From: an uncultured Candidatus Saccharibacteria bacterium
GTDB lineage: Bacteria > Patescibacteriota > WWE3 > 2-01-FULL-39-13
NCBI GenBank assembly: GCA_965230915.1
Contig: OZ246395.1
Span: 472,935 to 536,934, forward strand
Direction of reading: 5' to 3'
DNA length: 64,000 bases
Position numbers and translations under genes: made by a program. Shown here piece after piece: positions 44 to 64,000 of the stretch. Below the pieces are notes generated by a model that saw only the letters and a list, made by a program, of their open reading frames with translations, had not been told where the DNA came from and made no database searches. Numbering within the stretch: position 1 is the stretch's first letter; every line of letters starts with the position of its first letter.

Positions 44-130
44 TGGTCCAGAGGGTAGGATTTGAACCTACGTAGGGATAGACCCGTCAGATTTACAGTC
101 TGATGCGATTGACCGCTCCGCCACCTCTGG
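44..130 (-). tRNA. tRNA-Tyr (anticodon GTA), long variable arm, encoded CCA
   Basis: Reverse complement gives a cloverleaf: acceptor CCAGAGG/CCTCTGG, anticodon loop CUGUAAA, T-loop GGTTCAAATCC, long variable arm typical of bacterial Tyr. The 5' end may lie at 130 or 131. Confidence 0.8.
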
Positions 131-246: not shown

Positions 247-2580
247 ATGCTAGAATGGACTGGTATGAAAAAACTCGTTTCCAATGCTAGGTATGGAAAA
301 AGGGTTGGAATCCCAACAAAATTACCCAAATTGTCTGGCGACTTTTCAGAAAAGGTACTATATATAATAGCCGTGATTTCGGGGCTAGGCCTTTTTGCCA
401 GTATTGTTGGAGCCATAGGATTAATCTTCGTTTTTACAGCTTTTTCGAGTACTCTACCCTCTCCTGGGAAGCTAACTAACCGTTCAATTGAACAATCAAC
501 CAAGATATATGATCGTAATGGAGAACTATTATATTCAGTATTCGATGCTAAAAACCGTACTCTAGTTACGCTAAGTCAGGTTTCTCCATATTTAATTCAT
601 GCAACACTTGCGACTGAAGATGGAGATTTTTACTATCACCAAGGTATCGATCCACTAGGAACGGCCCGCGGAATTCTTGTAACAATTACTACACGCGGTA
701 AACAAGGAGGTTCTACTTTAACTCAACAGGTTGCAAAAAATGCGCTTCTTACTCAAGATCGAACTATCACACGTAAGATTAAAGATATTGTGCTCGCTCT
801 TCAGATCGAAAAGAAGTACTCCAAAGATGAAATTTTACAGATGTATTTGAACGAAGTTCCATATGGAGGAACAACCTGGGGAGTCGAAGCTGCATCAAAA
901 ACTTACTTTGGTAAAAGTGCTGCAGATTTAACTTTAGCTGAATCAGCTTTAATTGCAGGTTTGCCACAGTCTCCGACTAGATATTCACCTTTTAGAGATC
1001 CAGAAGCCGCAAAAGACCGTCAAAAATATGTTTTATATTTAATGCACACTCGTGGTTGGGTTTCTCCGGATGGATCAAGACAATATATTTCCGACGAAGA
1101 ATATAACAAAGCTATCGAAGAGCCATTAAATTATGCGAGTTTTAACGGTACCTTTAGAGCTCCTCATTTTGTAATGTATGTTTTGAATTTACTTCGAGAA
1201 AGATATGGCGATGCAATGGTTGAAAGTGGAGGATTACAAGTAAAAACTTCTTTAGACTTAAAAATATATGATGAATATCAAAACATTGTTAAAGAAGAAG
1301 TCGAAAAAGCAAAAAATCTTGATGTTTCAAACGCGGGCTTAGTTGCAATCGATCCAAAAACACGTGAAATTTTAGCAATGGTGGGATCTGTTGATTATTT
1401 TAGTGAAGATATTGATGGACAATTTAATGTAGCTTTAGGAAAGCGTCAGCCAGGATCTACGTTAAAGCCAATAACTTACTTAACGGGATTTTTACAAGGT
1501 TATACAGCTTCTACAGTTATGTATGATGTATACACTCAATTTGATGGCGGCGCAGGTCAAGCGCCTTATGACCCGCAAAACTATGGCGGATGGGGTTTTA
1601 GAGGACCAATACAGGTTCGATATGCTTTAGCGAACTCTGTTAACGTTACAGCGGTAAAAATGCTAGATCTTGTAGGGATTCAAAATATGGTTAACTTGGC
1701 AAACAATTTAGGGGTTAAATCCTTGTACTACGATCCTTCAAAGCATGGATTGGCCTTAACACTTGGTGGAGGCGAAGTCACCTTATTAGACTTAACAAGC
1801 GGATACGCATCACTTGCTGCTGAAGGTGTTTATAAAGATTCTGTTGCTGTTTTAGAAGTAAAAGATGGGTCAGGAAAAGTTTTAGAACATCACCAAGATT
1901 CTGAGGGTAAAAGAGTTGTTGATCCAAGATATGTTTATGTAATTAGCACTATTTTGTCAGACAATAACGCTCGCGCTGCGGCTTTTGGTACTGGATCACA
2001 GCTTTACATTCCAAATAATAAAGTAGCAGTAAAAACTGGAACTTCAAATGACCTTAAAGACAACTGGACAGTTGGTTATACAGATGAAATCGCAATTGGG
2101 GTTTGGGTTGGAAATAACGATGGTAAACAAATGAATAATCGTTTGGCATCCGGCTTAACTGGAGCTGCACCAATTTGGCATCGTGCTATAGTTTCATTTT
2201 TAACAGAGCATCCACATAAAGAATTTAAACAGCCAGAAGGCATAAAGGAAGTTATGGTAGGAACTCTATCTGGAATGCTTCCATATGAAGATAAAGAAGA
2301 ACAACGTCTTGAATATTTTGTTGAAGGTACAGAACCTAAAACAAAATCAGATATGTTCCAACGAGTAAAAATCTGTGATGATGGAGATGTTGAAGACAAA
2401 CTTTATATCGAATACAAAGCTGAAAAGCCAGAGTGGCAGAAATATGTTGATGCTTGGATCGATGATAAATATAAAGATAACGATGATGAAAGGTATAAAT
2501 ATCGTGGTCCAGAAGTTGAAAAGAAGGATAAACCAGACAAATTTGATACCGATAACTGTGAAGAAGATGACGATGATTAG
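247..2580 (+). CDS. Class A penicillin-binding protein (PBP1A-type bifunctional transglycosylase/transpeptidase) with an acidic C-terminal tail
   Basis: N-terminal TM anchor; GT51 motifs (EDGDFYYHQGID, GGSTLTQQVAKN); transpeptidase motifs (STLKP = SxxK, KTGTSND = KTG). C-terminus is very D/E/K rich (…NCEEDDDD). The start could be ATG 247 or 265. Confidence 0.9.
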   Translation: MLEWTGMKKLVSNARYGKRVGIPTKLPKLSGDFSEKVLYIIAVISGLGLFASIVGAIGLIFVFTAFSSTLPSPGKLTNRSIEQSTKIYDRNGELLYSVFDAKNRTLVTLSQVSPYLIHATLATEDGDFYYHQGIDPLGTARGILVTITTRGKQGGSTLTQQVAKNALLTQDRTITRKIKDIVLALQIEKKYSKDEILQMYLNEVPYGGTTWGVEAASKTYFGKSAADLTLAESALIAGLPQSPTRYSPFRDPEAAKDRQKYVLYLMHTRGWVSPDGSRQYISDEEYNKAIEEPLNYASFNGTFRAPHFVMYVLNLLRERYGDAMVESGGLQVKTSLDLKIYDEYQNIVKEEVEKAKNLDVSNAGLVAIDPKTREILAMVGSVDYFSEDIDGQFNVALGKRQPGSTLKPITYLTGFLQGYTASTVMYDVYTQFDGGAGQAPYDPQNYGGWGFRGPIQVRYALANSVNVTAVKMLDLVGIQNMVNLANNLGVKSLYYDPSKHGLALTLGGGEVTLLDLTSGYASLAAEGVYKDSVAVLEVKDGSGKVLEHHQDSEGKRVVDPRYVYVISTILSDNNARAAAFGTGSQLYIPNNKVAVKTGTSNDLKDNWTVGYTDEIAIGVWVGNNDGKQMNNRLASGLTGAAPIWHRAIVSFLTEHPHKEFKQPEGIKEVMVGTLSGMLPYEDKEEQRLEYFVEGTEPKTKSDMFQRVKICDDGDVEDKLYIEYKAEKPEWQKYVDAWIDDKYKDNDDERYKYRGPEVEKKDKPDKFDTDNCEEDDDD

Positions 2581-56315: not shown

Positions 56316-56627
56316 CTAGTCAGCAGTGGGCAGTGGTGGCATGTACGAGTAGTCGGAACTATCCCCTTCTGCATCATCTTCGTCATCGTCATCGATAGCC
56401 TCAAGATTTGGAAAAGGACAACTTGGGTCAACTTCGTCATCTTTATCTTCTTGATCAAATGACTTTTCCAACAGTCTCTCCTTCATACAAAGCGTAGTGT
56501 GCGGTCGGCCTTTTGAGCCATGGGAAATTGTACTCTTAGTGAATGTAAAATCAATAATGATAATTGAGGCTTTAATTATCGGAGTTTTCGTTGTCATTCT
56601 CAGACTCTTCCTGATCTGTTTCTTCAC
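56316..56627 (-). CDS. Doubtful small acidic ORF overlapping the 3' end of the PBP gene
   Basis: GTG-start ORF that overlaps the PBP1A-2 C-terminus by 56 nt in another frame. The C-terminal 56 aa from an internal ATG at 56486 are highly acidic. There is no SD. Confidence 0.2.
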   Translation of the reverse strand: MKKQIRKSLRMTTKTPIIKASIIIIDFTFTKSTISHGSKGRPHTTLCMKERLLEKSFDQEDKDDEVDPSCPFPNLEAIDDDDEDDAEGDSSDYSYMPPLPTAD

Positions 56628-59600
56628 GTTCTTTGCGTTTTTGTTCCTCTTTTTCTAATATATCCCTAACAACTTTCGGATCACATGCAACTTTAGGCTC
56701 TTTTCCTTTTTCGTATAGCTGAGTTACATTTGGACATCCGGAACAAGCCAATGTATTTGTTAATGGGCAAATATCAACTTCAATTAAACCAGCTGGCCTG
56801 GTTATAGAGCTAGCCATTGGACGGCTATCAATTAAATAGTCGACTGCTTTGCGCCAAATAGTCGAAGATCCGACATATCCGGAGGCTAAACCGACCATTG
56901 GTTTGTTATAGTTATTTCCGACCCAAGTTGCGACAACATAGTCGTCGTTATATCCGATCGCCCAGTTATCCTTTTCTTCATTTGTAGTACCTGTCTTTAC
57001 TGCGAATTGTTTCTTAGTTACGTTTAATTCAGAATTTGATCCAAAAGCTGCTGATCGAGCTCTGTTATCAGTTAAGACATTACTGATCATATAAGCGGTA
57101 TATTCACTCAAAACTTTATCTTTTGCACATGTATTATGCGGAATATTTTCAGTGGTCATAGTTGCAGCCATTGCATTTGTTTCAAACCAAGCTCTTCTAG
57201 TTAAAATTGATGTATCTTCATCTAAGAAATCTACACAATCATTCTGTTCAATTATATTTCCATATGAATCATAAATCTTTAGAATTGGATTAAGGTCTTT
57301 TCGGTATCCGCCATTTGCAAACACACCATAAACAACTGCCATGTCTGTCATTTTGACCTCACCAGCTCCTAAAGTTAAAGATAGTCCAAATCTGGATGAA
57401 TCATTCCAAGTTGAGATACCCATACTTTTAGCCTGGTCAACTAAAGCCTGAACTCCAAATTTATCTAGAAGCTTAACAGCTGGAATATTATATGAATTAG
57501 CTAAAGCTTGTTTCAAAGTTACCCGGCCATGAAATTTACCATCGTAGTTAACAGGCTTATATGTATTATTGGCACCGAGTTTGAATGTAATTGGATTATC
57601 TTCTATAACAGTACTGATTGTATAACCATTCTCTAGAGCCATTGCATAAGTGACGGGTTTTATAGATGAACCAGGCTGACGTGGAGAAATTGTTATATTA
57701 ACATTCCCATCATTTTCTGTATCCCAATAGTCTTTAGAACCTACCATTGCCAAAATCTCGCCAGTTTTTGGATCAGTAATTAAAGCAGCGCCGTTTGAAA
57801 CACGGTTTTTGCCTAATTTTGATACCTCAGATTCAACTATGCTTTCTAGCTCTGTTTGAAGATCGATATCAATGCTTGTAAATACGTCTAGTCCGCCTTG
57901 CATAACCATCAATTGGCCATATTTGTCTTCTAATTCAGAAATTACATAATTAACAAAATGTGGAGCTATAATTCGTTCACTAGGGCTCTTAAATTCAAGT
58001 TGCTCATTAAATGCATTATCTGAGTCTTGCTGAGAAATATATCCGCTAGCAACCATTCGATCCAAAACCAATTTCTGACGAATTTTGCCAGCTTCATAAT
58101 TTCCAACAAATGGAGAATATTTTGATGGCGAAGCTGGAAGTCCAGCTAAAAATGCGCTTTCACCTAAACTTAAACTTTCAAGATCCTTACCAAAATAGCG
58201 TTTAGCAGCGGCCTTAATACCGTATGCAGTTCCCCCATATGAAATTCGGTTTAAATACATTTCTAAAATCTGGTCTTTGCTATACATTCTTTCGACTTCG
58301 ACTGCCATTACGGCTTCTTTTGCCTTTCTTTCATAGGTTCTTTCTGAAGTTAATAGAGAATTTTTTACCAATTGTTGAGTAATAGTTGATCCTCCTTCCA
58401 TATCGTCTTCTAAAAATGTCTTTTTGGCCGCACGAATAATACCTCTTATAGAAAGACCATTGTGCTCATAGAAATTTGCATCCTCGATAGCAATTGTCGC
58501 GTGAAGGAGATTTTCGGGAATGCTAGAAAGCGGAACTATTGATCGATCTTCATCGTTATATAAACGGTATAAAACATTGCCTTTTCGGTCGTAAATTGTA
58601 GTTGTCTGACGAGGTTCATTTATTGATAAATTCTCAACTTTGGGAAGGTCTTCCCAAACAACAAAATAAAATGCTGTTCCTAGATATATTCCAATAAAGA
58701 AGGCTATAAATAGGAAAGTTCTAAATGAAAAAAGCTTGAACTTAACTTCAAAGCTAAAAATAGCCTTAAGGACTTTATAAATAGTGCGAAATGGCCATAG
58801 AAGTACATTCAAAATACCTAAGAGAGTCGTCTTTATAACATTTGATAAAAACTGAGTAAACCCAAGAAAGAATGGCTTTTTCTGTTTCTTTCCAGCGACC
58901 TTTGCTTTAGTTTGGACAATTTTAACTGGGGTAACTGGTTTTATTGCTGCTTTACTAACCTTTACCTTCTTCTTTGATTTAAAAATAGATGGAATTGCGA
59001 AAGTTATTGAAGGCAGAGCAAACTTTGGCATTCTTAACGCCGGCACTTGGATCTTTGGCATCCTTACCTCTGGCCAAGCAATTTTAGGAGTATTTATAGT
59101 AATATCAGGAATCTCAATTTTTACCTTTGCAAGGCGAACTATTTGGGTCCTAGATACTAAATAACCTTTTATAAACAAGCCAGCTAAATCCTTTAATTCA
59201 GCAATTAAAGCTTTCCATTCTGAAACAAAATATTTTTTTATGTCTAAACTCGGAATAGAAACCTTAGGAATTTCAGGCATTTTTGGCATTTGTACCTGAG
59301 GCACTGCAATAGTTGGCGCCTGAACTTTAGGTATATCAATTTTAGGAATTGTTAATTTAGGTGCTTCAAATTTAGGCAATTTAAGGCTTTTCTTTACTGC
59401 CTTTATTTTAGTATTAATAGCACCCCAAAACGATGTGCTATAGGTTTTAACCCAGTTAATTCCCGCAGTGTACAAATTCTTAGCCAATTTGAACAGGAAC
59501 CTAAACAGGTTTATGTATACTAACGGAATATAGTATAAAACCTCGAAAATGAAGTGTTTTTTATACCATGGGATAATCTTAGTTACTTTCACAGTTTTCT

Positions 59601-59634
59601 TATTTTTTTTGAGTTTTTTTTGCCTTCTGTCCAT
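56572..59634 (-). CDS. Class A penicillin-binding protein paralog with a ~330-aa N-terminal cytoplasmic Pro/Lys repeat extension and an acidic C-terminal tail
   Basis: GT51 motifs (EDANFYEHNGLS, GGSTITQQLVKN), transpeptidase SSIKP and KTGTTNE. The N-terminal region before the TM contains many P-K-(I/V/M)-x-x-P-type repeats (KLPKFEAPKLTIPKIDIPKVQAPTIAVPQVQMPKMPEIPKVSIP…). The C-terminus is E/D/N-rich. Confidence 0.85.
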   Translation of the reverse strand: MDRRQKKLKKNKKTVKVTKIIPWYKKHFIFEVLYYIPLVYINLFRFLFKLAKNLYTAGINWVKTYSTSFWGAINTKIKAVKKSLKLPKFEAPKLTIPKIDIPKVQAPTIAVPQVQMPKMPEIPKVSIPSLDIKKYFVSEWKALIAELKDLAGLFIKGYLVSRTQIVRLAKVKIEIPDITINTPKIAWPEVRMPKIQVPALRMPKFALPSITFAIPSIFKSKKKVKVSKAAIKPVTPVKIVQTKAKVAGKKQKKPFFLGFTQFLSNVIKTTLLGILNVLLWPFRTIYKVLKAIFSFEVKFKLFSFRTFLFIAFFIGIYLGTAFYFVVWEDLPKVENLSINEPRQTTTIYDRKGNVLYRLYNDEDRSIVPLSSIPENLLHATIAIEDANFYEHNGLSIRGIIRAAKKTFLEDDMEGGSTITQQLVKNSLLTSERTYERKAKEAVMAVEVERMYSKDQILEMYLNRISYGGTAYGIKAAAKRYFGKDLESLSLGESAFLAGLPASPSKYSPFVGNYEAGKIRQKLVLDRMVASGYISQQDSDNAFNEQLEFKSPSERIIAPHFVNYVISELEDKYGQLMVMQGGLDVFTSIDIDLQTELESIVESEVSKLGKNRVSNGAALITDPKTGEILAMVGSKDYWDTENDGNVNITISPRQPGSSIKPVTYAMALENGYTISTVIEDNPITFKLGANNTYKPVNYDGKFHGRVTLKQALANSYNIPAVKLLDKFGVQALVDQAKSMGISTWNDSSRFGLSLTLGAGEVKMTDMAVVYGVFANGGYRKDLNPILKIYDSYGNIIEQNDCVDFLDEDTSILTRRAWFETNAMAATMTTENIPHNTCAKDKVLSEYTAYMISNVLTDNRARSAAFGSNSELNVTKKQFAVKTGTTNEEKDNWAIGYNDDYVVATWVGNNYNKPMVGLASGYVGSSTIWRKAVDYLIDSRPMASSITRPAGLIEVDICPLTNTLACSGCPNVTQLYEKGKEPKVACDPKVVRDILEKEEQKRKEREETDQEESENDNENSDN

Positions 59635-59830
59635 GGAGGTAAAAGTCTAACTATAAGACTCTGCGTATATTTTAAATTCATCCGCAATATGTGTCTATAG
59701 GTTCTTCGCTGACAAATTTGACCAAAATCCCCTCTTTCGCAAGTCATTTGGGTGATATTTTGACGATTTCTGTAATTTTATAAAAGGCTGAAGTCGTATA
59801 TAATTATGCAGTAATCTTGTAGATCCTTAT

Positions 59831-59904
59831 TGCCAGATCGTCTAATGGTAGGACAGCGGCCTTTGAAGCCGTCAATCATGGTTCGAGTCCATGTCTGGCA
59901 GCCA
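59831..59904 (+). tRNA. tRNA-Gln (anticodon TTG), U1-A72, encoded CCA
   Basis: TGCCAGATCGTCTAATGGTAGGACAGCGGCCTTTGAAGCCGTCAATCATGGTTCGAGTCCATGTCTGGCAGCCA; U1:A72 and discriminator G are typical of bacterial tRNA-Gln. Confidence 0.75.
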
Positions 59905-59913
59905 GATTAAATC

Positions 59914-61224
59914 ATGAGCGACGGATTAACTATTAACCCAGACATATCTATCTTTCAAGCCGAAAGATCTTCTAAACATATTACTGTACTAAGTGGTGTT
60001 AATAATTCAGGTAAATCTGCAGTTCTAAAAAGGATCAAAGCACAATTGGGAGTATCAGCCTACTTAATTGGACCTGTACGTTTTTATCATGTACATCAAC
60101 TTGCCTCGCAAGAAAAAGATCCTAACGAGCTACATAACCTCGAATCTCAATTTCAGCAACAATTTACACAAACCAATACAAATCACGAACAAAATTTCCT
60201 TAACTTAACAAATATCCTTATAAATCTTTCTGATACAGATAGAAATAAATTATTTGAAATATGTGGCGAACTCATCGGATCAAAATTTACATTAAAACAA
60301 ACTGACCCTAATAACATAATGAGTATGAGGTATATAGATATGGATGGACAAAATTTGGGGTTGGGAAGTACTGGAACTCGTCTATTAATGACTATGCTCG
60401 GAATATGTATGGATAAAAGGTTTACTACAATTTTAATTGATGAACCTGAACTGGGATTAAGTCCTAAGATCCAGGAAGCTTTTTCTGATTTCTTATTTAA
60501 TGAGAGTCGTAGATCTCAAATATTTCCACATCTAGAAAATATTTATATTGCTACTCACTCTCACCTTTTCTTAGATAGAAAGGATCCAGAAAATAACTTT
60601 ATAATTTCTAAGAACGGGAATACAGTTTCAATCACAAAAATTAAAACAATTAGCGAGCTGCATAGGCTTCAATTTAATCTATTAGGAAACTCACTAGAAA
60701 GAATTTTTCTACCATCAGCCTTCGTTATAGTTGAAGGTCCAAGTGATTTTAAATATTTAAAAAGACTCATCGAGTTGAAATTTCCTGACAAAAGAATAAC
60801 AATTGCAGATGGTCAAGGTGATGTAAAAAGGGTCGTAAATTCGACTATCGAGACTTTAGGTGGAGATCTCAATAAAAGCCCTTATAAAGATAGATTATTT
60901 GTTGTAAACGACTCAGTTACTTCCCCTGGATTAAAAGCTATTCTTGCACAAAAAGGTATTATTGGAGATAAATTCATATCTTGGGATAAAAATGGCATTG
61001 AATATTTATATCCTCCGAACATCCTAGGAGAAATATTTGGAATATCACCTGAAAAAATTTTAAATGAATTACAAATAAATAATGATGATATCGAAGTTAG
61101 GAGTATTAGTCGAAAGAAAAATTCATTGTCAGATGAAATTGTATCAAAGCTTACACCAGATACAGAATTACCAAAAGAACTCATAGATAAATTATTAGAA
61201 CCAATCCTCAGAGCTATTAGCTAA
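59914..61224 (+). CDS. OLD-family ATP-dependent nuclease-like protein (N-terminal ABC-type ATPase + C-terminal TOPRIM/DUF4435-like domain)
   Basis: Walker A LSGVNNSGKSAVL; Q/signature-like GLGSTGTRLLM; Walker B TILIDEPELGLSP; H-loop IATHSH; C-terminal FVIVEGPSD…IADGQGD…FVVNDS (TOPRIM-like E and DxD). It starts 10 nt after tRNA-Gln. Confidence 0.6.
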   Translation: MSDGLTINPDISIFQAERSSKHITVLSGVNNSGKSAVLKRIKAQLGVSAYLIGPVRFYHVHQLASQEKDPNELHNLESQFQQQFTQTNTNHEQNFLNLTNILINLSDTDRNKLFEICGELIGSKFTLKQTDPNNIMSMRYIDMDGQNLGLGSTGTRLLMTMLGICMDKRFTTILIDEPELGLSPKIQEAFSDFLFNESRRSQIFPHLENIYIATHSHLFLDRKDPENNFIISKNGNTVSITKIKTISELHRLQFNLLGNSLERIFLPSAFVIVEGPSDFKYLKRLIELKFPDKRITIADGQGDVKRVVNSTIETLGGDLNKSPYKDRLFVVNDSVTSPGLKAILAQKGIIGDKFISWDKNGIEYLYPPNILGEIFGISPEKILNELQINNDDIEVRSISRKKNSLSDEIVSKLTPDTELPKELIDKLLEPILRAIS

Positions 61225-61262
61225 AACTAGTTCGAACACCCTCTACAACAGCCAACCAAGAT

Positions 61263-61463
61263 TTATTTCTTATACTCCAAAATATCAGCGGGCTGACAAT
61301 CTAAAGCTTTGCAAATCGCTTCTAGAGTCGACAAACGAATAGCTTTGGCCTTGCCGTTTTTTAATATAGAAATATTTGCCATTGTAATGCCAACCTTCTC
61401 AGCTAATTCTGTAACACTCATCTTTCGTTTTGCCAACATAACATCAATATTTATTATTATCAT
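61263..61463 (-). CDS. XRE-family (Cro/C1-type) helix-turn-helix transcriptional regulator
   Basis: LAKRKMSVTELAEKVGITMANISILKNGKAKAIRLSTLEAICKALDCQPADILEY is the classic HTH_3 domain. Confidence 0.85.
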   Translation of the reverse strand: MIIINIDVMLAKRKMSVTELAEKVGITMANISILKNGKAKAIRLSTLEAICKALDCQPADILEYKK

Positions 61464-61473
61464 TTTGATCCTC

Positions 61474-61956
61474 TTAAACTGTTAAATCGTTTTCTGATTT
61501 TAAATCTATTCCGTTTTGTAAAATTCTTTGAACGACAGTTGCAAACGTAGCGATTACTACAAATATAAAAGTAGTATATATGCCTAAAGCAGCAACACCT
61601 GCTGCATCTTCACCATTAGCTTTAGCGTTCAGAATAATATAACCTTCACCAAAGAAAATGAATACAGGCAATGCAATTGCACAATATTTTATTTTTTTAA
61701 CCGCTTTTATAGCTGCCTCAGAAAAGACATTATTATCGTCTACATATTCCAAAAGTTTAAATGATTGGTAAAGTCCAATAAAAAATGGGATCGAAGCGAT
61801 GTATCCATAAATTATAAATGGATCAGTATAAATGTTAATTAAATCTAAATTTTGGGCCCTTCCTTCATTTAGCGGGAACATAATCAAGCCAGCAATTGCT
61901 GCAAGAGTAATAAGTATAATAACAACCTTTAAAAAAAATGTGGAAATAGGTTTCAT
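61474..61956 (-). CDS. DUF2975-like 4-TM membrane protein (partner of a small XRE regulator)
   Basis: Four TM helices, about 160 aa, immediately upstream of a 66-aa XRE protein. This is the arrangement typical of DUF2975/HTH pairs. Confidence 0.5.
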   Translation of the reverse strand: MKPISTFFLKVVIILITLAAIAGLIMFPLNEGRAQNLDLINIYTDPFIIYGYIASIPFFIGLYQSFKLLEYVDDNNVFSEAAIKAVKKIKYCAIALPVFIFFGEGYIILNAKANGEDAAGVAALGIYTTFIFVVIATFATVVQRILQNGIDLKSENDLTV

Positions 61957-62027
61957 AGATAAATAAATAATTAACTAACCAAATCTTAATACGTTATTTA
62001 TCGTTTGTCAATATATTTTTATCGTTA

Positions 62028-63026: not shown

Positions 63027-63788
63027 ATGAGTGATAAAATCTTAAATATAAAAGAAGCTAGCCAACTTCTAAACATACACTGGCAAACCGTTCGAAATTA
63101 TATAAATAGCGGAAAGCTTCCTGCTTCCAAGATTGGAAAAAATATAAGGATTAGGGAGTCAGATGTAATAAGACTATTAAATGGTACTTCTTCTGAATCC
63201 GAGAATGTTGAAATAGAGTTGAGATTTCTAACAGAAAAAAGAACTCAAATAGAGGAAAAATTGTTAAAGATGGGAGCAAAAGTAAGCTACCATGCACTTG
63301 TTATTGACCACTGGTATATCCCGAACGAAATAAAAAATCTAGAAGAGAAGAATGAATATTTTGATACAGGAAAAGGGTTCGGACTAAGGATACGCGAGCA
63401 AGACAATGACTATGTTGGAAAAATGAACACAAGCCTTGAGGTTAAAAGACTAGTAACACCCTTTCAGCATGATACATGCATAGAACAGGAAATCCCAGTT
63501 ACTTCATATGATGAAACAGATAGATTATTAAGACTTATGAATTTTAAAGAGTTTATAACTATAGAAAAAGATAGACTAATTTATAAACTTAAAGATATAA
63601 AAGTTGTAATTGATGATATCAAAAATTTTGCGACGGGAGTTGAAATAGAAATAATGACAAATAAAGGTAGAGACTTCGCAATACCAATTATCAAAAATTT
63701 GGCTGAAGAACTTGGCTTAGATCTAGCTAACGAACTAACTGAGAAAAGCGTCACATATGAAGCAATGGTAAAACTTGCAATATTTTAA
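63027..63788 (+). CDS. Fusion protein: N-terminal excisionase/MerR-like HTH (HTH_17) + C-terminal CYTH-like domain
   Basis: LNIKEASQLLNIHWQTVRNYINSGKLPASKIGKNIRIRESDV is an Xis/MerR-type HTH. It is followed by VEIELRFL (ExExK-like CYTH signature) and downstream E/K/R tunnel-like residues (FGLRIREQD, VEIEIMT). Confidence 0.5.
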   Translation: MSDKILNIKEASQLLNIHWQTVRNYINSGKLPASKIGKNIRIRESDVIRLLNGTSSESENVEIELRFLTEKRTQIEEKLLKMGAKVSYHALVIDHWYIPNEIKNLEEKNEYFDTGKGFGLRIREQDNDYVGKMNTSLEVKRLVTPFQHDTCIEQEIPVTSYDETDRLLRLMNFKEFITIEKDRLIYKLKDIKVVIDDIKNFATGVEIEIMTNKGRDFAIPIIKNLAEELGLDLANELTEKSVTYEAMVKLAIF

Positions 63789-63865: not shown

Positions 63866-64000
63866 ACCTTAGGCATCCGTAGGCATCAACCCTGCAATTA
63901 TTCCCTCAAGCCTAGGATCAATCTCCAGGAACCTACGCAGATACTCTAAACGTGGAGACCCAGCTATAGCAAACCAGACTGGGATATGCCATGACTGTCC
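63866..64000 (-). CDS. Probable 3' end of a GC-rich gene continuing beyond the window
   Basis: Open frame on the minus strand from the window edge to TAA at 63867-63869; GC content is higher than the flanks. The gene is partial. Confidence 0.25.

Follow-up and report, generated by a model that had tools for sequence, protein, structure and literature searches.

What kind of locus lies behind the tRNA-Gln gene near one end of a 64,000-nucleotide (nt) stretch of a Candidatus Saccharibacteria genome, and does it serve immunity? The stretch (contig OZ246395.1 of assembly GCA_965230915.1, positions 472,935 to 536,934 of the forward strand; hereafter the window, numbered from its first letter) carries immediately after tRNA-Gln a gene for a protein of 436 amino acids (aa), followed by a gene pair for a helix-turn-helix (HTH) protein and a DUF2975 membrane protein. 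An earlier interpretation made from the letters alone (the sequence-only reading) had seen in the 436-aa protein an OLD-type combination of ABC-ATPase and TOPRIM nuclease, and had proposed that the three genes form a compact immunity locus or that the protein represents a divergent OLD subclass. The reading we prefer, with a probability of about 0.6, is that the protein is a compact, self-sufficient OLD member, an ATP-controlled TOPRIM nuclease acting against foreign elements, whose gene is accessory and lies in a tRNA-Gln hotspot beside a separate YoaS-YozG operon. OLD proteins rank with the most frequent nuclease modules in bacterial immunity, and those characterised are ATP-regulated nucleases in phage defence (PMC10568477, PMC7049728, PMC12392090, PMC12445682). 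Whether an OLD protein can defend by itself, and how its ATPase controls its nuclease, are open questions in the field (PMC10568477).

The features on which the argument starts are the following:

59777..59804, plus strand: promoter-like TTTATA-16-TATAAT upstream of tRNA-Gln, a consensus match only (10 of 12 positions in a consensus scan)
59831..59904, plus strand: tRNA-Gln (anticodon UUG), a native gene that marks the end of conserved synteny (ARAGORN, Rfam)
59914..61224, plus strand: gene for a compact OLD-family ATPase-TOPRIM protein, 436 aa (open reading frame list, homologues, PADLOC, Foldseek)

The tRNA gene is called by both ARAGORN and Rfam (Rfam score 63.9 bits) and encodes its CCA end, as do all 14 tRNA genes of the window (44-130 to 59831-59904). 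Only 9 nt separate its last base from the ATG of the 436-aa frame, whose coordinates include the stop codon. In an alignment of 30 sequences the homologues start no more than a few residues away, which confirms the start codon, and the frame is real and not a chance one, with 813 homologues, nearly all of 430-450 aa and the best of them, self excluded, 70% identical. The placement of the gene right after tRNA-Gln, the reading frames and the motifs quoted in the sequence-only reading are all borne out (GVNNSGKS at residues 28-35, ILIDEPELGL at 173-182, ATHSH at 213-217, VIVEGPSD at 271-278, DGQGD at 299-303). The sole promoter-like site found upstream of the nuclease gene precedes the tRNA (59777-59804), and no terminator-like site was found. 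It is plausible that the gene is transcribed by read-through from the tRNA promoter, which would make a candidate tRNA-Gln/nuclease co-transcript.

The N-terminal half of the protein has the elements of an ABC-type ATPase. Conservation was taken from the 30-homologue alignment, which spans several phyla (mean column identity 62%), and structure from a full-length AlphaFold2 model (predicted local distance difference test, pLDDT, 86), with secondary structure by DSSP and matches to the Protein Data Bank (PDB) by Foldseek:

59914..60648, plus strand: ABC-type ATPase domain, residues 1-245 (Pfam AAA_21, AlphaFold2 model, Foldseek)
59995..60018, plus strand: Walker A/P-loop GVNNSGKS, residues 28-35; G28, N30, N31, G33, K34 and S35 invariant in the 30 homologues
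60082..60363, plus strand: short helical insert, residues 57-150; helices 72-85, 98-104 and 107-121 by DSSP
60367..60387, plus strand: ABC signature-like STGTRLL, residues 152-158, 21 residues before Walker B; S152, G154, T155 and R156 invariant
60430..60459, plus strand: Walker B, catalytic glutamate and D-loop region ILIDEPELGL, residues 173-182; D176, E177, E179, G181 and L182 invariant
60550..60564, plus strand: H-loop ATHSH, residues 213-217; T214, H215 and S216 invariant; aligned to 'sTHS' of TsOLD, GajA and P2 Old
60649..60705, plus strand: linker helix, residues 246-264, with the clade-specific motif LQFNLLGN; Q253, N255, L257, G258 and N259 invariant

Walker A, Walker B and H-loop are thus all present in an N-terminal domain of ABC type. 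Pfam recognizes AAA_21 above its cut-off (33 bits), with AAA_15 and SMC_N below theirs, and the STGTRLL signature falls inside the AAA_21 match at 152-204. The P-loop aligns with those of Thermus scotoductus OLD (TsOLD) and GajA, and Walker B with the regions beginning at 268 in TsOLD, 280 in GajA and 293 in P2 Old. The helical insert sits where other OLD proteins have their dimerisation domain and is far smaller. The linker helix is modelled with pLDDT below 50 at residues 262-264.

When the full-length model is compared with the PDB, its best matches are TsOLD (6p74, E-value 3.7e-9), many GajA chains and the OLD protein of retron Eco8, with alignments that run over almost the full length; cohesin, SMC and RecN heads are also matched, behind the OLD proteins. 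Among PADLOC profiles the best are AriAB (1.9e-12), Old (5.3e-11) and ATPase-Toprim_I-B (5.5e-10), followed by several GajA models, and these alignments reach into the C-terminal domain (residues 172-390 for AriAB, 147-349 for one GajA model). The best NCBIfam match is the retron Eco8 effector, far below threshold (35 bits against a cut-off of 250).

The C-terminal half was also modelled separately (residues 262-436; pLDDT 95, predicted template modelling score, pTM, 0.89), and is laid out as follows:

60706..61038, plus strand: TOPRIM core, residues 265-375; beta-strands 269-273, 295-299, 328-332 and 354-356 alternating with helices
60724..60747, plus strand: TOPRIM motif 1, VIVEGPSD; E274 (the TOPRIM glutamate), G275 and D278 invariant
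60808..60828, plus strand: clade-specific motif DGQGDVK after strand 2; G302 and K305 invariant, D303 at least 90% conserved
60901..60918, plus strand: TOPRIM motif 3, VVNDSV, at the end of strand 3; D333 invariant and at the DxD position, the second Asp missing
60991..61014, plus strand: TOPRIM motif 4, NGIEYLYP, after strand 4; N360, G361, E363, Y366 and P367 invariant
61039..61221, plus strand: C-terminal beta-meander and two helices, residues 376-436 (DSSP); K402 and E422 invariant

Structure prediction, which the sequence-only reading had named as the check on its TOPRIM assignment, gives a C-terminal domain with a predicted OLD-type TOPRIM fold, at weak domain-level E-values (0.016-0.03). 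The best superposition is on 6nk8_A, the C-terminal region of Burkholderia pseudomallei OLD (BpOLD), with probability 0.99 and template modelling (TM) scores of 0.61/0.55; this match covers 219 columns and so extends past the TOPRIM core into residues 376-436. By E-value the best Foldseek match is a chain of the PARIS complex, 8ux9_A (0.016), and PARIS chain 8v46_D is matched as well. The models show a beta-alpha-beta-alpha-beta-alpha-beta unit in which conserved acidic residues close strands 1, 3 and 4 at their C-terminal ends, as in TOPRIM domains. Sub-threshold matches to PF20469 (OLD-like_TOPRIM) were found in 8 of 30 clade members and in two more distant ones.

Residue by residue, the putative active site is partly that of known OLD proteins and partly its own. 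In profile alignments E274 coincides with the TOPRIM glutamate of GajA ('lliEGpse') and of P2 Old ('llVEGKTE'; hhalign probability 89%), and the spacing of E274 and D278, a glutamate with an acidic residue four positions on, is that of E377 and D381 in TsOLD (PMC7049728). The C-terminus of P2 Old has the four motifs in matching order and reads LLVEGKTE / AVDGKGS / ILADCDF / IWKSGDIEAVYG where the protein studied here has VIVEGPSD / ADGQGDVK / VVNDSV / SWDKNGIEYLYP. P2 Old 'VDGKGS' is thereby collinear with DGQGDVK. Motif 4 pairs with P2 Old 'SGDIEAVYG' at low hhalign probability (with the P2 Old C-terminus alone, only 'IE..Y' is aligned), and distant clade members have 'SIEEY' there, an SxE arrangement like S478/E480 of TsOLD; E363 is a candidate metal-B glutamate. 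The DxD with two metal-A ligands (D431/D433 in TsOLD, D455/D457 in BpOLD) is absent, D333 alone being conserved: the position after it is S, K, N, A, E, Q or R, and the next is V, K or T, never Asp, in 30 of 30 sequences. D303 could substitute for the lost Asp, and K305 or K402, which is located at the start of a C-terminal helix, could take the role of the catalytic Lys/Arg (K562 in BpOLD, R487 in TsOLD).

From its motifs, PADLOC and Foldseek matches and domain model, the 436-aa protein is an OLD-family ABC-ATPase/TOPRIM protein, as the sequence-only reading had proposed, and 'divergent OLD subclass' is a fair description of it. It resembles the class 1 proteins (P2 Old, TsOLD and Vibrio cholerae OLD, VcOLD) in being a single gene without a dedicated partner, in the collinearity of its EGxxD/E, 'IE..Y', Walker B and H-loop motifs with P2 Old, and in having TsOLD as the best full-length fold match. 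It differs from them in several respects. With its 436 aa it falls about 90-150 aa short of them (native TsOLD has 525 aa, P2 Old 586), in agreement with the earlier reading, which had noted its small size relative to classical class 1 proteins. Walker B lies at 171 here as against 268 in TsOLD, and the TOPRIM glutamate at 274 as against 377, which places the whole deficit of about 100 residues before Walker B, where the TsOLD dimerisation domain sits. That insert consists of four helices in TsOLD (PMC7049728); the 436-aa model has just three short ones (72-121) at its position. The ABC signature, invariant in the 436-aa clade, is degenerate in class 1, and the class 2 homologue of B. pseudomallei lacks it (PMC7049728). 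The DxD is reduced to D333, as against 'ADCD' in P2 Old and D431/D433 in TsOLD, and the clade has extra invariant GD..K and LQFNLLGN motifs. Sequence similarity to class 1 is marginal (profile E-value 4.6e-4 to 6p74; hhalign probability 89% to P2 Old).

The other OLD classes share features with it as well. PARIS (class 4) and retron Eco8 (class 3) provide the best PADLOC profile (the fused 'AriAB') and the best NCBIfam match (the Eco8 effector), respectively, and PARIS-complex chains are among the top fold matches of the C-terminal domain. Both domains are, however, in a single 436-aa frame and not split into AriA and AriB; neither a reverse transcriptase nor a retron noncoding RNA was found among the neighbours (Rfam gives only tRNAs in the window), and the Eco8 OLD protein is much longer (model length 679). 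Gabija GajA (class 2) shares the ATPase-TOPRIM architecture, with E274 on the GajA TOPRIM glutamate, and the C-terminal domain superposes on the class 2 BpOLD C-terminal region at TM 0.61, whereas the 436-aa protein is about 140-160 aa shorter than GajA and a GajB/UvrD-like helicase gene lies beside its gene neither in the window nor at any of the homologue loci. Frames and Pfam matches in the window show no UvrD/GajB, AriB or reverse transcriptase gene adjoining the nuclease gene, in line with the earlier statement that UvrD/GajB and AriB partners are missing there.

The protein belongs to a compact clade of wide distribution. A word-indexed search returned the 813 homologues, which are about 47-57% identical for the most part and come from Saccharimonadales-labelled metagenome-assembled genomes (MAGs), Rhodanobacter, Pontibacter, Aphanizomenon, Chloroflexi, Roseateles and Pyrinomonadaceae. 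Their public names are 'ATP-dependent nuclease' or 'AAA family ATPase' at NCBI and sometimes 'predicted ATP-dependent endonuclease of OLD family' at JGI. An exhaustive profile search of 1.84 billion representatives gave 3062 proteins at E-values up to 1e-3 and 175 at up to 1e-30, again with a core of 430-450 aa. Patchy phyletic distribution together with near-identical lengths in unrelated phyla implies horizontal transfer. Many members have 60-210 additional N-terminal residues (e.g., P0131, P0135, P0140, P0132, P0167, P0249), in which weak, sub-threshold Pfam matches to SUKH-1 (SMI1_KNR4) and GYF_2 recur; these extensions may be sensor or adaptor domains.

Does the nuclease act with a partner? 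Partners were sought in the called-gene tables of six genomic contexts and by clustering neighbours over 90 loci (10 genomic, 80 metagenomic), and no recurrent partner gene, whether helicase, separate TOPRIM protein or reverse transcriptase, was found in the 90. The gene is thus single and isolated, as in class 1, and its description as standalone in the sequence-only reading is borne out at these loci. Occasional neighbours are HicAB (Aphanizomenon) and an insertion sequence transposase with a Tse2-type ADP-ribosyltransferase toxin (Rhodanobacter). An integron integrase alone recurs next to the gene, recognised by TIGR02249 at 391 bits (cut-off 265). In one arrangement (L116, 1954-5377; the same in L117), intI on the minus strand is followed by a 159-aa cassette, an attC site (GGCTAAC...GTTAGGC), the OLD-like gene and a second attC site (GCCTAAC...GTTCGGT) that begins 19 nt past the OLD-like stop codon; in another (L099, 1708-5224; the same in L101), an IntI-like gene and an attC site (GCCGAAC...GTTCGGC) precede the OLD-like gene. 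A fold-based scan with a shuffled control placed attC-like sites up to 300 nt past the gene in 10 of 72 loci and ahead of it in 10 of 82, as against about 4-5% in shuffled sequence; in all, roughly 10-15% of the family's metagenome loci have such a site at their flank. An attC site directly 3' of the stop codon is present in L094, L095, L106, L116/117 and L121. A subset of clade members are bona fide integron cassettes. The same scan found no attC-like site at the window copy, which does not appear as a cassette itself. Integron cassettes are single promoterless genes, and carriage as a single cassette is direct evidence that the nuclease is a mobile, self-sufficient unit. The 436-aa protein most likely works alone, without a partner protein. 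Integron cassettes have been reported to carry phage-defence genes (bioRxiv 10.1101/2024.07.02.601719; PMC12614218); no mention of OLD cassettes was found in these two reports.

The genomic setting in the window indicates that the gene is accessory. Synteny was examined in 78 loci that share the neighbouring penicillin-binding-protein gene PBP1, most of them in MAGs labelled as Patescibacteria (Microgenomates, WWE3, Saccharibacteria), with weaker matches in Chloroflexota. Many others, among those with the PBP1 loci closest to that of the window (e.g., L017, L019, L024), are deposited as 'uncultured Gammaproteobacteria' or 'Pseudomonadales', which looks like mislabelled public taxonomy. The window is strictly collinear from 44.7 to 59.9 kb, through tRNA-Gln, with three relatives (L011, L012 and L013), and its PBP1 is 82% identical to that of L011 (best segment). 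L011 has the same tRNA-Gln sequence (100% identity), and directly behind the CCA the resemblance ends. Beyond this point the three relatives differ from each other, so that synteny breaks off precisely at the 3' end of the tRNA and what follows is variable. In L013 (7320-9214) a 607-aa large serine recombinase (Resolvase, Recombinase and Zn_ribbon_recom domains) abuts the same tRNA-Gln, which suggests that an element has integrated where the window carries the nuclease gene. None of the 78 loci has the nuclease, HTH, DUF2975, msrA/B or HTH-CYTH genes within 10 kb. The G+C content of the nuclease gene, 31.9% as against 36.6% for the window, fits an accessory gene. The break in synteny, the differing relatives and the recombinase of L013 together identify the 3' flank of tRNA-Gln as a plasticity hotspot and the nuclease gene as accessory; the alternative named by the sequence-only reading, a core gene in all relatives, is at odds with its absence from the syntenic site of three relatives and with the variable flank.

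What the hotspot holds in the window is not a defence island in the usual sense, since the other genes of the variable stretch are msrA, msrB and one for an HTH-CYTH protein. No recombinase was found in 59.9-64.0 kb and no direct repeat of the tRNA 3' end in 59.7-64.0 kb; the variable region may extend beyond the window end at 64000. The HTH-CYTH gene (63027-63788, plus strand) lies in the same variable stretch, of low G+C (32.0%), and encodes a 253-aa protein in which an excisionase/MerR-type HTH_17 domain (also matched by HTH models of MADS MAD1) is fused to a CYTH/class IV adenylate-cyclase-like domain, a fusion that struck us as uncommon.

Adjacency to a tRNA recurs in two relatives of the nuclease. 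A 70% identical homologue in another MAG (L001, 7901-8001) follows its own, different tRNA-Gln on the same strand with a 26-nt gap, which suggests reuse of the tRNA-Gln flank in this lineage. A further one (L010, 7773-8001) follows a same-strand tRNA-Leu(CAA) with a 143-nt gap. Adjacency as a trait of the whole family was considered and rejected, a tRNA lying within 400 nt upstream in 0 of about 72 evaluable metagenome loci. The association may be restricted to a Patescibacteria sub-clade (n = 2).

How would such a protein act? In the mechanism that we propose, two ATPase heads would engage around ATP; that the signature motif is intact speaks for a nucleotide sandwich of the canonical kind. 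ATP binding or hydrolysis would then license the TOPRIM site to cut nucleic acid; the predicted site comprises E274/D278, D333 and E363, to which the clade-specific D303/K305 and K402 may contribute. The reaction would be triggered on sensing a foreign element, and either replication of the element would be stopped or the cell killed. Judging from the characterised OLD proteins, the nuclease would nick or degrade DNA or sever tRNA (PMC7049728, PMC6755086, PMC12392090, PMC12445682, PMC12409363).

Several observations weigh against this reading. With regard to the fold, the isolated C-terminal domain reaches E-values of just 0.016-0.028, has nothing significant when searched against viral structures, and the 436-aa protein has no Pfam TOPRIM match, PF20469 included. 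The DxD that forms the metal-A ligand pair in TsOLD and BpOLD is down to one Asp in every clade member aligned, and catalysis in the clade may accordingly differ or be weak. The suggested co-transcription with the tRNA derives only from a promoter consensus match and the 9-nt spacing. A defence role is attributed to the clade by analogy only, and among the OLD classes there is one, Cran1, whose role is not in defence (PMC12796447). No clade member was found in 50,697 phage records and no full-length copy in 72,556 plasmids, where six partial matches (about 34%) are to other AAA ATPases. Finally, about 50% identity across phyla, with the length held constant, is more conservation than is usual in a defence gene.

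The alternative that survives best retains the protein and changes its substrate: it could be a tRNA-directed endoribonuclease that shuts down translation, like P2 Old or AriB of PARIS. Precedents exist on this side, since P2 Old cuts the tRNA anticodon stem (PMC12445682) and AriB is a two-metal tRNase (PMC12409363), and the comparisons made here lean partly the same way, with AriAB as the best PADLOC profile, PARIS chain 8ux9_A as the best E-value for the isolated C-terminal domain and TOPRIM motifs collinear with P2 Old. TsOLD, VcOLD, GajA and BpOLD, however, act on DNA (PMC7049728, PMC12392090, PMC6755086), the top TM-score is to the DNA-cutting BpOLD domain, and the proximity of tRNA-Gln is no family trait, given the lack of upstream tRNAs at the roughly 72 evaluable metagenome loci. 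The sequence does not discriminate a DNA from a tRNA substrate. We regard the tRNase as a serious minority view, unlikely on the whole.

A housekeeping role in genome maintenance or the cell cycle, as an ATPase-nickase like the archaeal class 5 OLD protein Cran1, would fit the very high conservation (about 50% identity across phyla, 62% mean column identity), the fixed length, the retention of the gene in a small genome of Patescibacteria type and its frequent location among housekeeping genes; roles of OLD proteins outside defence are exemplified by Cran1 (PMC12796447). This explanation is improbable in view of the distribution of the gene. The three closest sampled relatives lack the gene at the syntenic site, and so do 78 of 78 PBP1 loci; its patchy occurrence at near-equal lengths in unrelated phyla implies horizontal transfer, and it is carried on integron cassettes. 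Nor does a conserved partner accompany it in an operon, whereas a membrane-protein gene regularly adjoins cran1 (PMC12796447).

It is more improbable still that the protein functions through its ATPase, with a TOPRIM domain that is dispensable or catalytically degenerate, as has been described for Escherichia coli YbjD (PMC13261556). Loss of the DxD in all clade members aligned is what such a view would draw on. Against it, E274, D278, D333, E363, K305 and K402 are invariant across phyla, which indicates purifying selection on the active site and not decay, and one metal site is enough for nicking in BpOLD (PMC6755086). When the family profile was aligned with E. coli YbjD by hhalign, only the P-loop matched.

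If the protein is the ATP-controlled nuclease that we favour, its interest lies at the level of the clade. The gene call is correct and fairly ordinary at family level, as public annotation already reads 'ATP-dependent nuclease'. The protein is nevertheless a member of a compact and strongly conserved OLD clade that departs in several respects from the defining features of class 1. The clade is a natural minimal OLD, about 100 residues under the smallest solved OLD structure, with a textbook ABC signature and one canonical metal ligand missing, about 50% identical from Patescibacteria to Cyanobacteria and Proteobacteria, and moving as a single integron cassette. It offers an attractive, easily expressed model for the coupling of ATPase and nuclease, and a candidate single-gene defence system, to which present defence catalogues match weakly and in part. 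One may speculate further, tentatively and at odds we would not put high, that the clade of about 436 aa is a separate, so far undescribed OLD class ('mini-OLD'): an autonomous single-chain ATPase-nuclease with canonical signature, a vestigial dimerisation insert and a re-wired TOPRIM metal site (one Asp and GD..K, with K402 from the C-terminal beta-meander/helix module), spread between phyla as a single-gene unit by integron cassettes and tRNA-flank hotspots, and acting in lone defence against phages or plasmids, possibly through tRNA cutting as P2 Old and AriB do. For this genome the outcome is modest: one probable accessory nuclease gene in a tRNA-Gln hotspot, beside an unrelated YoaS-YozG operon.

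The neighbouring pair and its upstream region comprise three features:

61263..61463, minus strand: yozG-like Cro/C1 HTH repressor gene, 66 aa (PF13443 HTH_26, E-value 3e-26)
61474..61956, minus strand: yoaS-like DUF2975 membrane protein gene, 160 aa, first of the operon (PF11188, E-value 4e-30)
61958..62002, no strand assigned: imperfect inverted repeat with 17-nt arms and an 11-nt spacer, directly upstream of the DUF2975 start, 82% complementary

The two genes are on the same strand, 10 nt apart, and convergent with the nuclease gene, the stop codons facing each other across 38 nt. The families that the sequence-only reading had named hold (HTH of Cro/C1 type as HTH_26, and DUF2975), while its count of four transmembrane helices becomes three to four, the hydropathy of the DUF2975 protein showing three clear hydrophobic segments and a weaker, aromatic-rich one. 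A promoter-like TTGACA-17-TAAGAT on the minus strand (62011-61983) overlaps the inverted repeat, which is a likely candidate for an operator of the HTH repressor. YoaS-YozG operons are conserved across phyla and have inverted-repeat operators upstream (bioRxiv 10.64898/2026.09.15.751765). The pair conforms to them in its two strongly matched Pfam families, in its gene order (DUF2975 first, then the Cro/C1 HTH gene) and in the inverted repeat in an AT-rich upstream region, and nothing sets the window copy apart. No PADLOC model matches the DUF2975 protein, and generic ones match the HTH protein only weakly (best E-value 1.6e-6); the pair was found beside none of about 90 other nuclease copies. 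The HTH and DUF2975 genes make up an autoregulated YoaS-YozG operon of their own, which adjoins the nuclease gene without being its partner; convergent orientation means that they cannot share an operon with it.

The compact immunity locus of the sequence-only reading, in which nuclease, HTH repressor and DUF2975 membrane protein would form a three-gene module, draws on the adjacency of the genes, their similarly low G+C (31.9% for the nuclease gene and 31.8% for the pair, as against 36.6% for the window), their common location in the variable stretch 3' of tRNA-Gln and the recurrence of the four-gene order in two short metagenome contigs with an identical copy of the protein, but it is highly implausible, because convergent genes give separate transcripts, the DUF2975 protein matches no PADLOC model, the pair is separately conserved as an operon across phyla, and the module is already contradicted by the lack of co-occurrence, the pair being missing at every other locus of the nuclease family, including those of the 70% and 60% identical homologues.

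On the other side of tRNA-Gln, the window has two paralogous genes for class A penicillin-binding proteins, at 56572-59634 (minus strand) and 247-2580 (plus strand), whose products are about 39% identical. The one beside tRNA-Gln has a repetitive N-terminal extension of about 300 residues, rich in lysine, proline and isoleucine, that is also present in L011.

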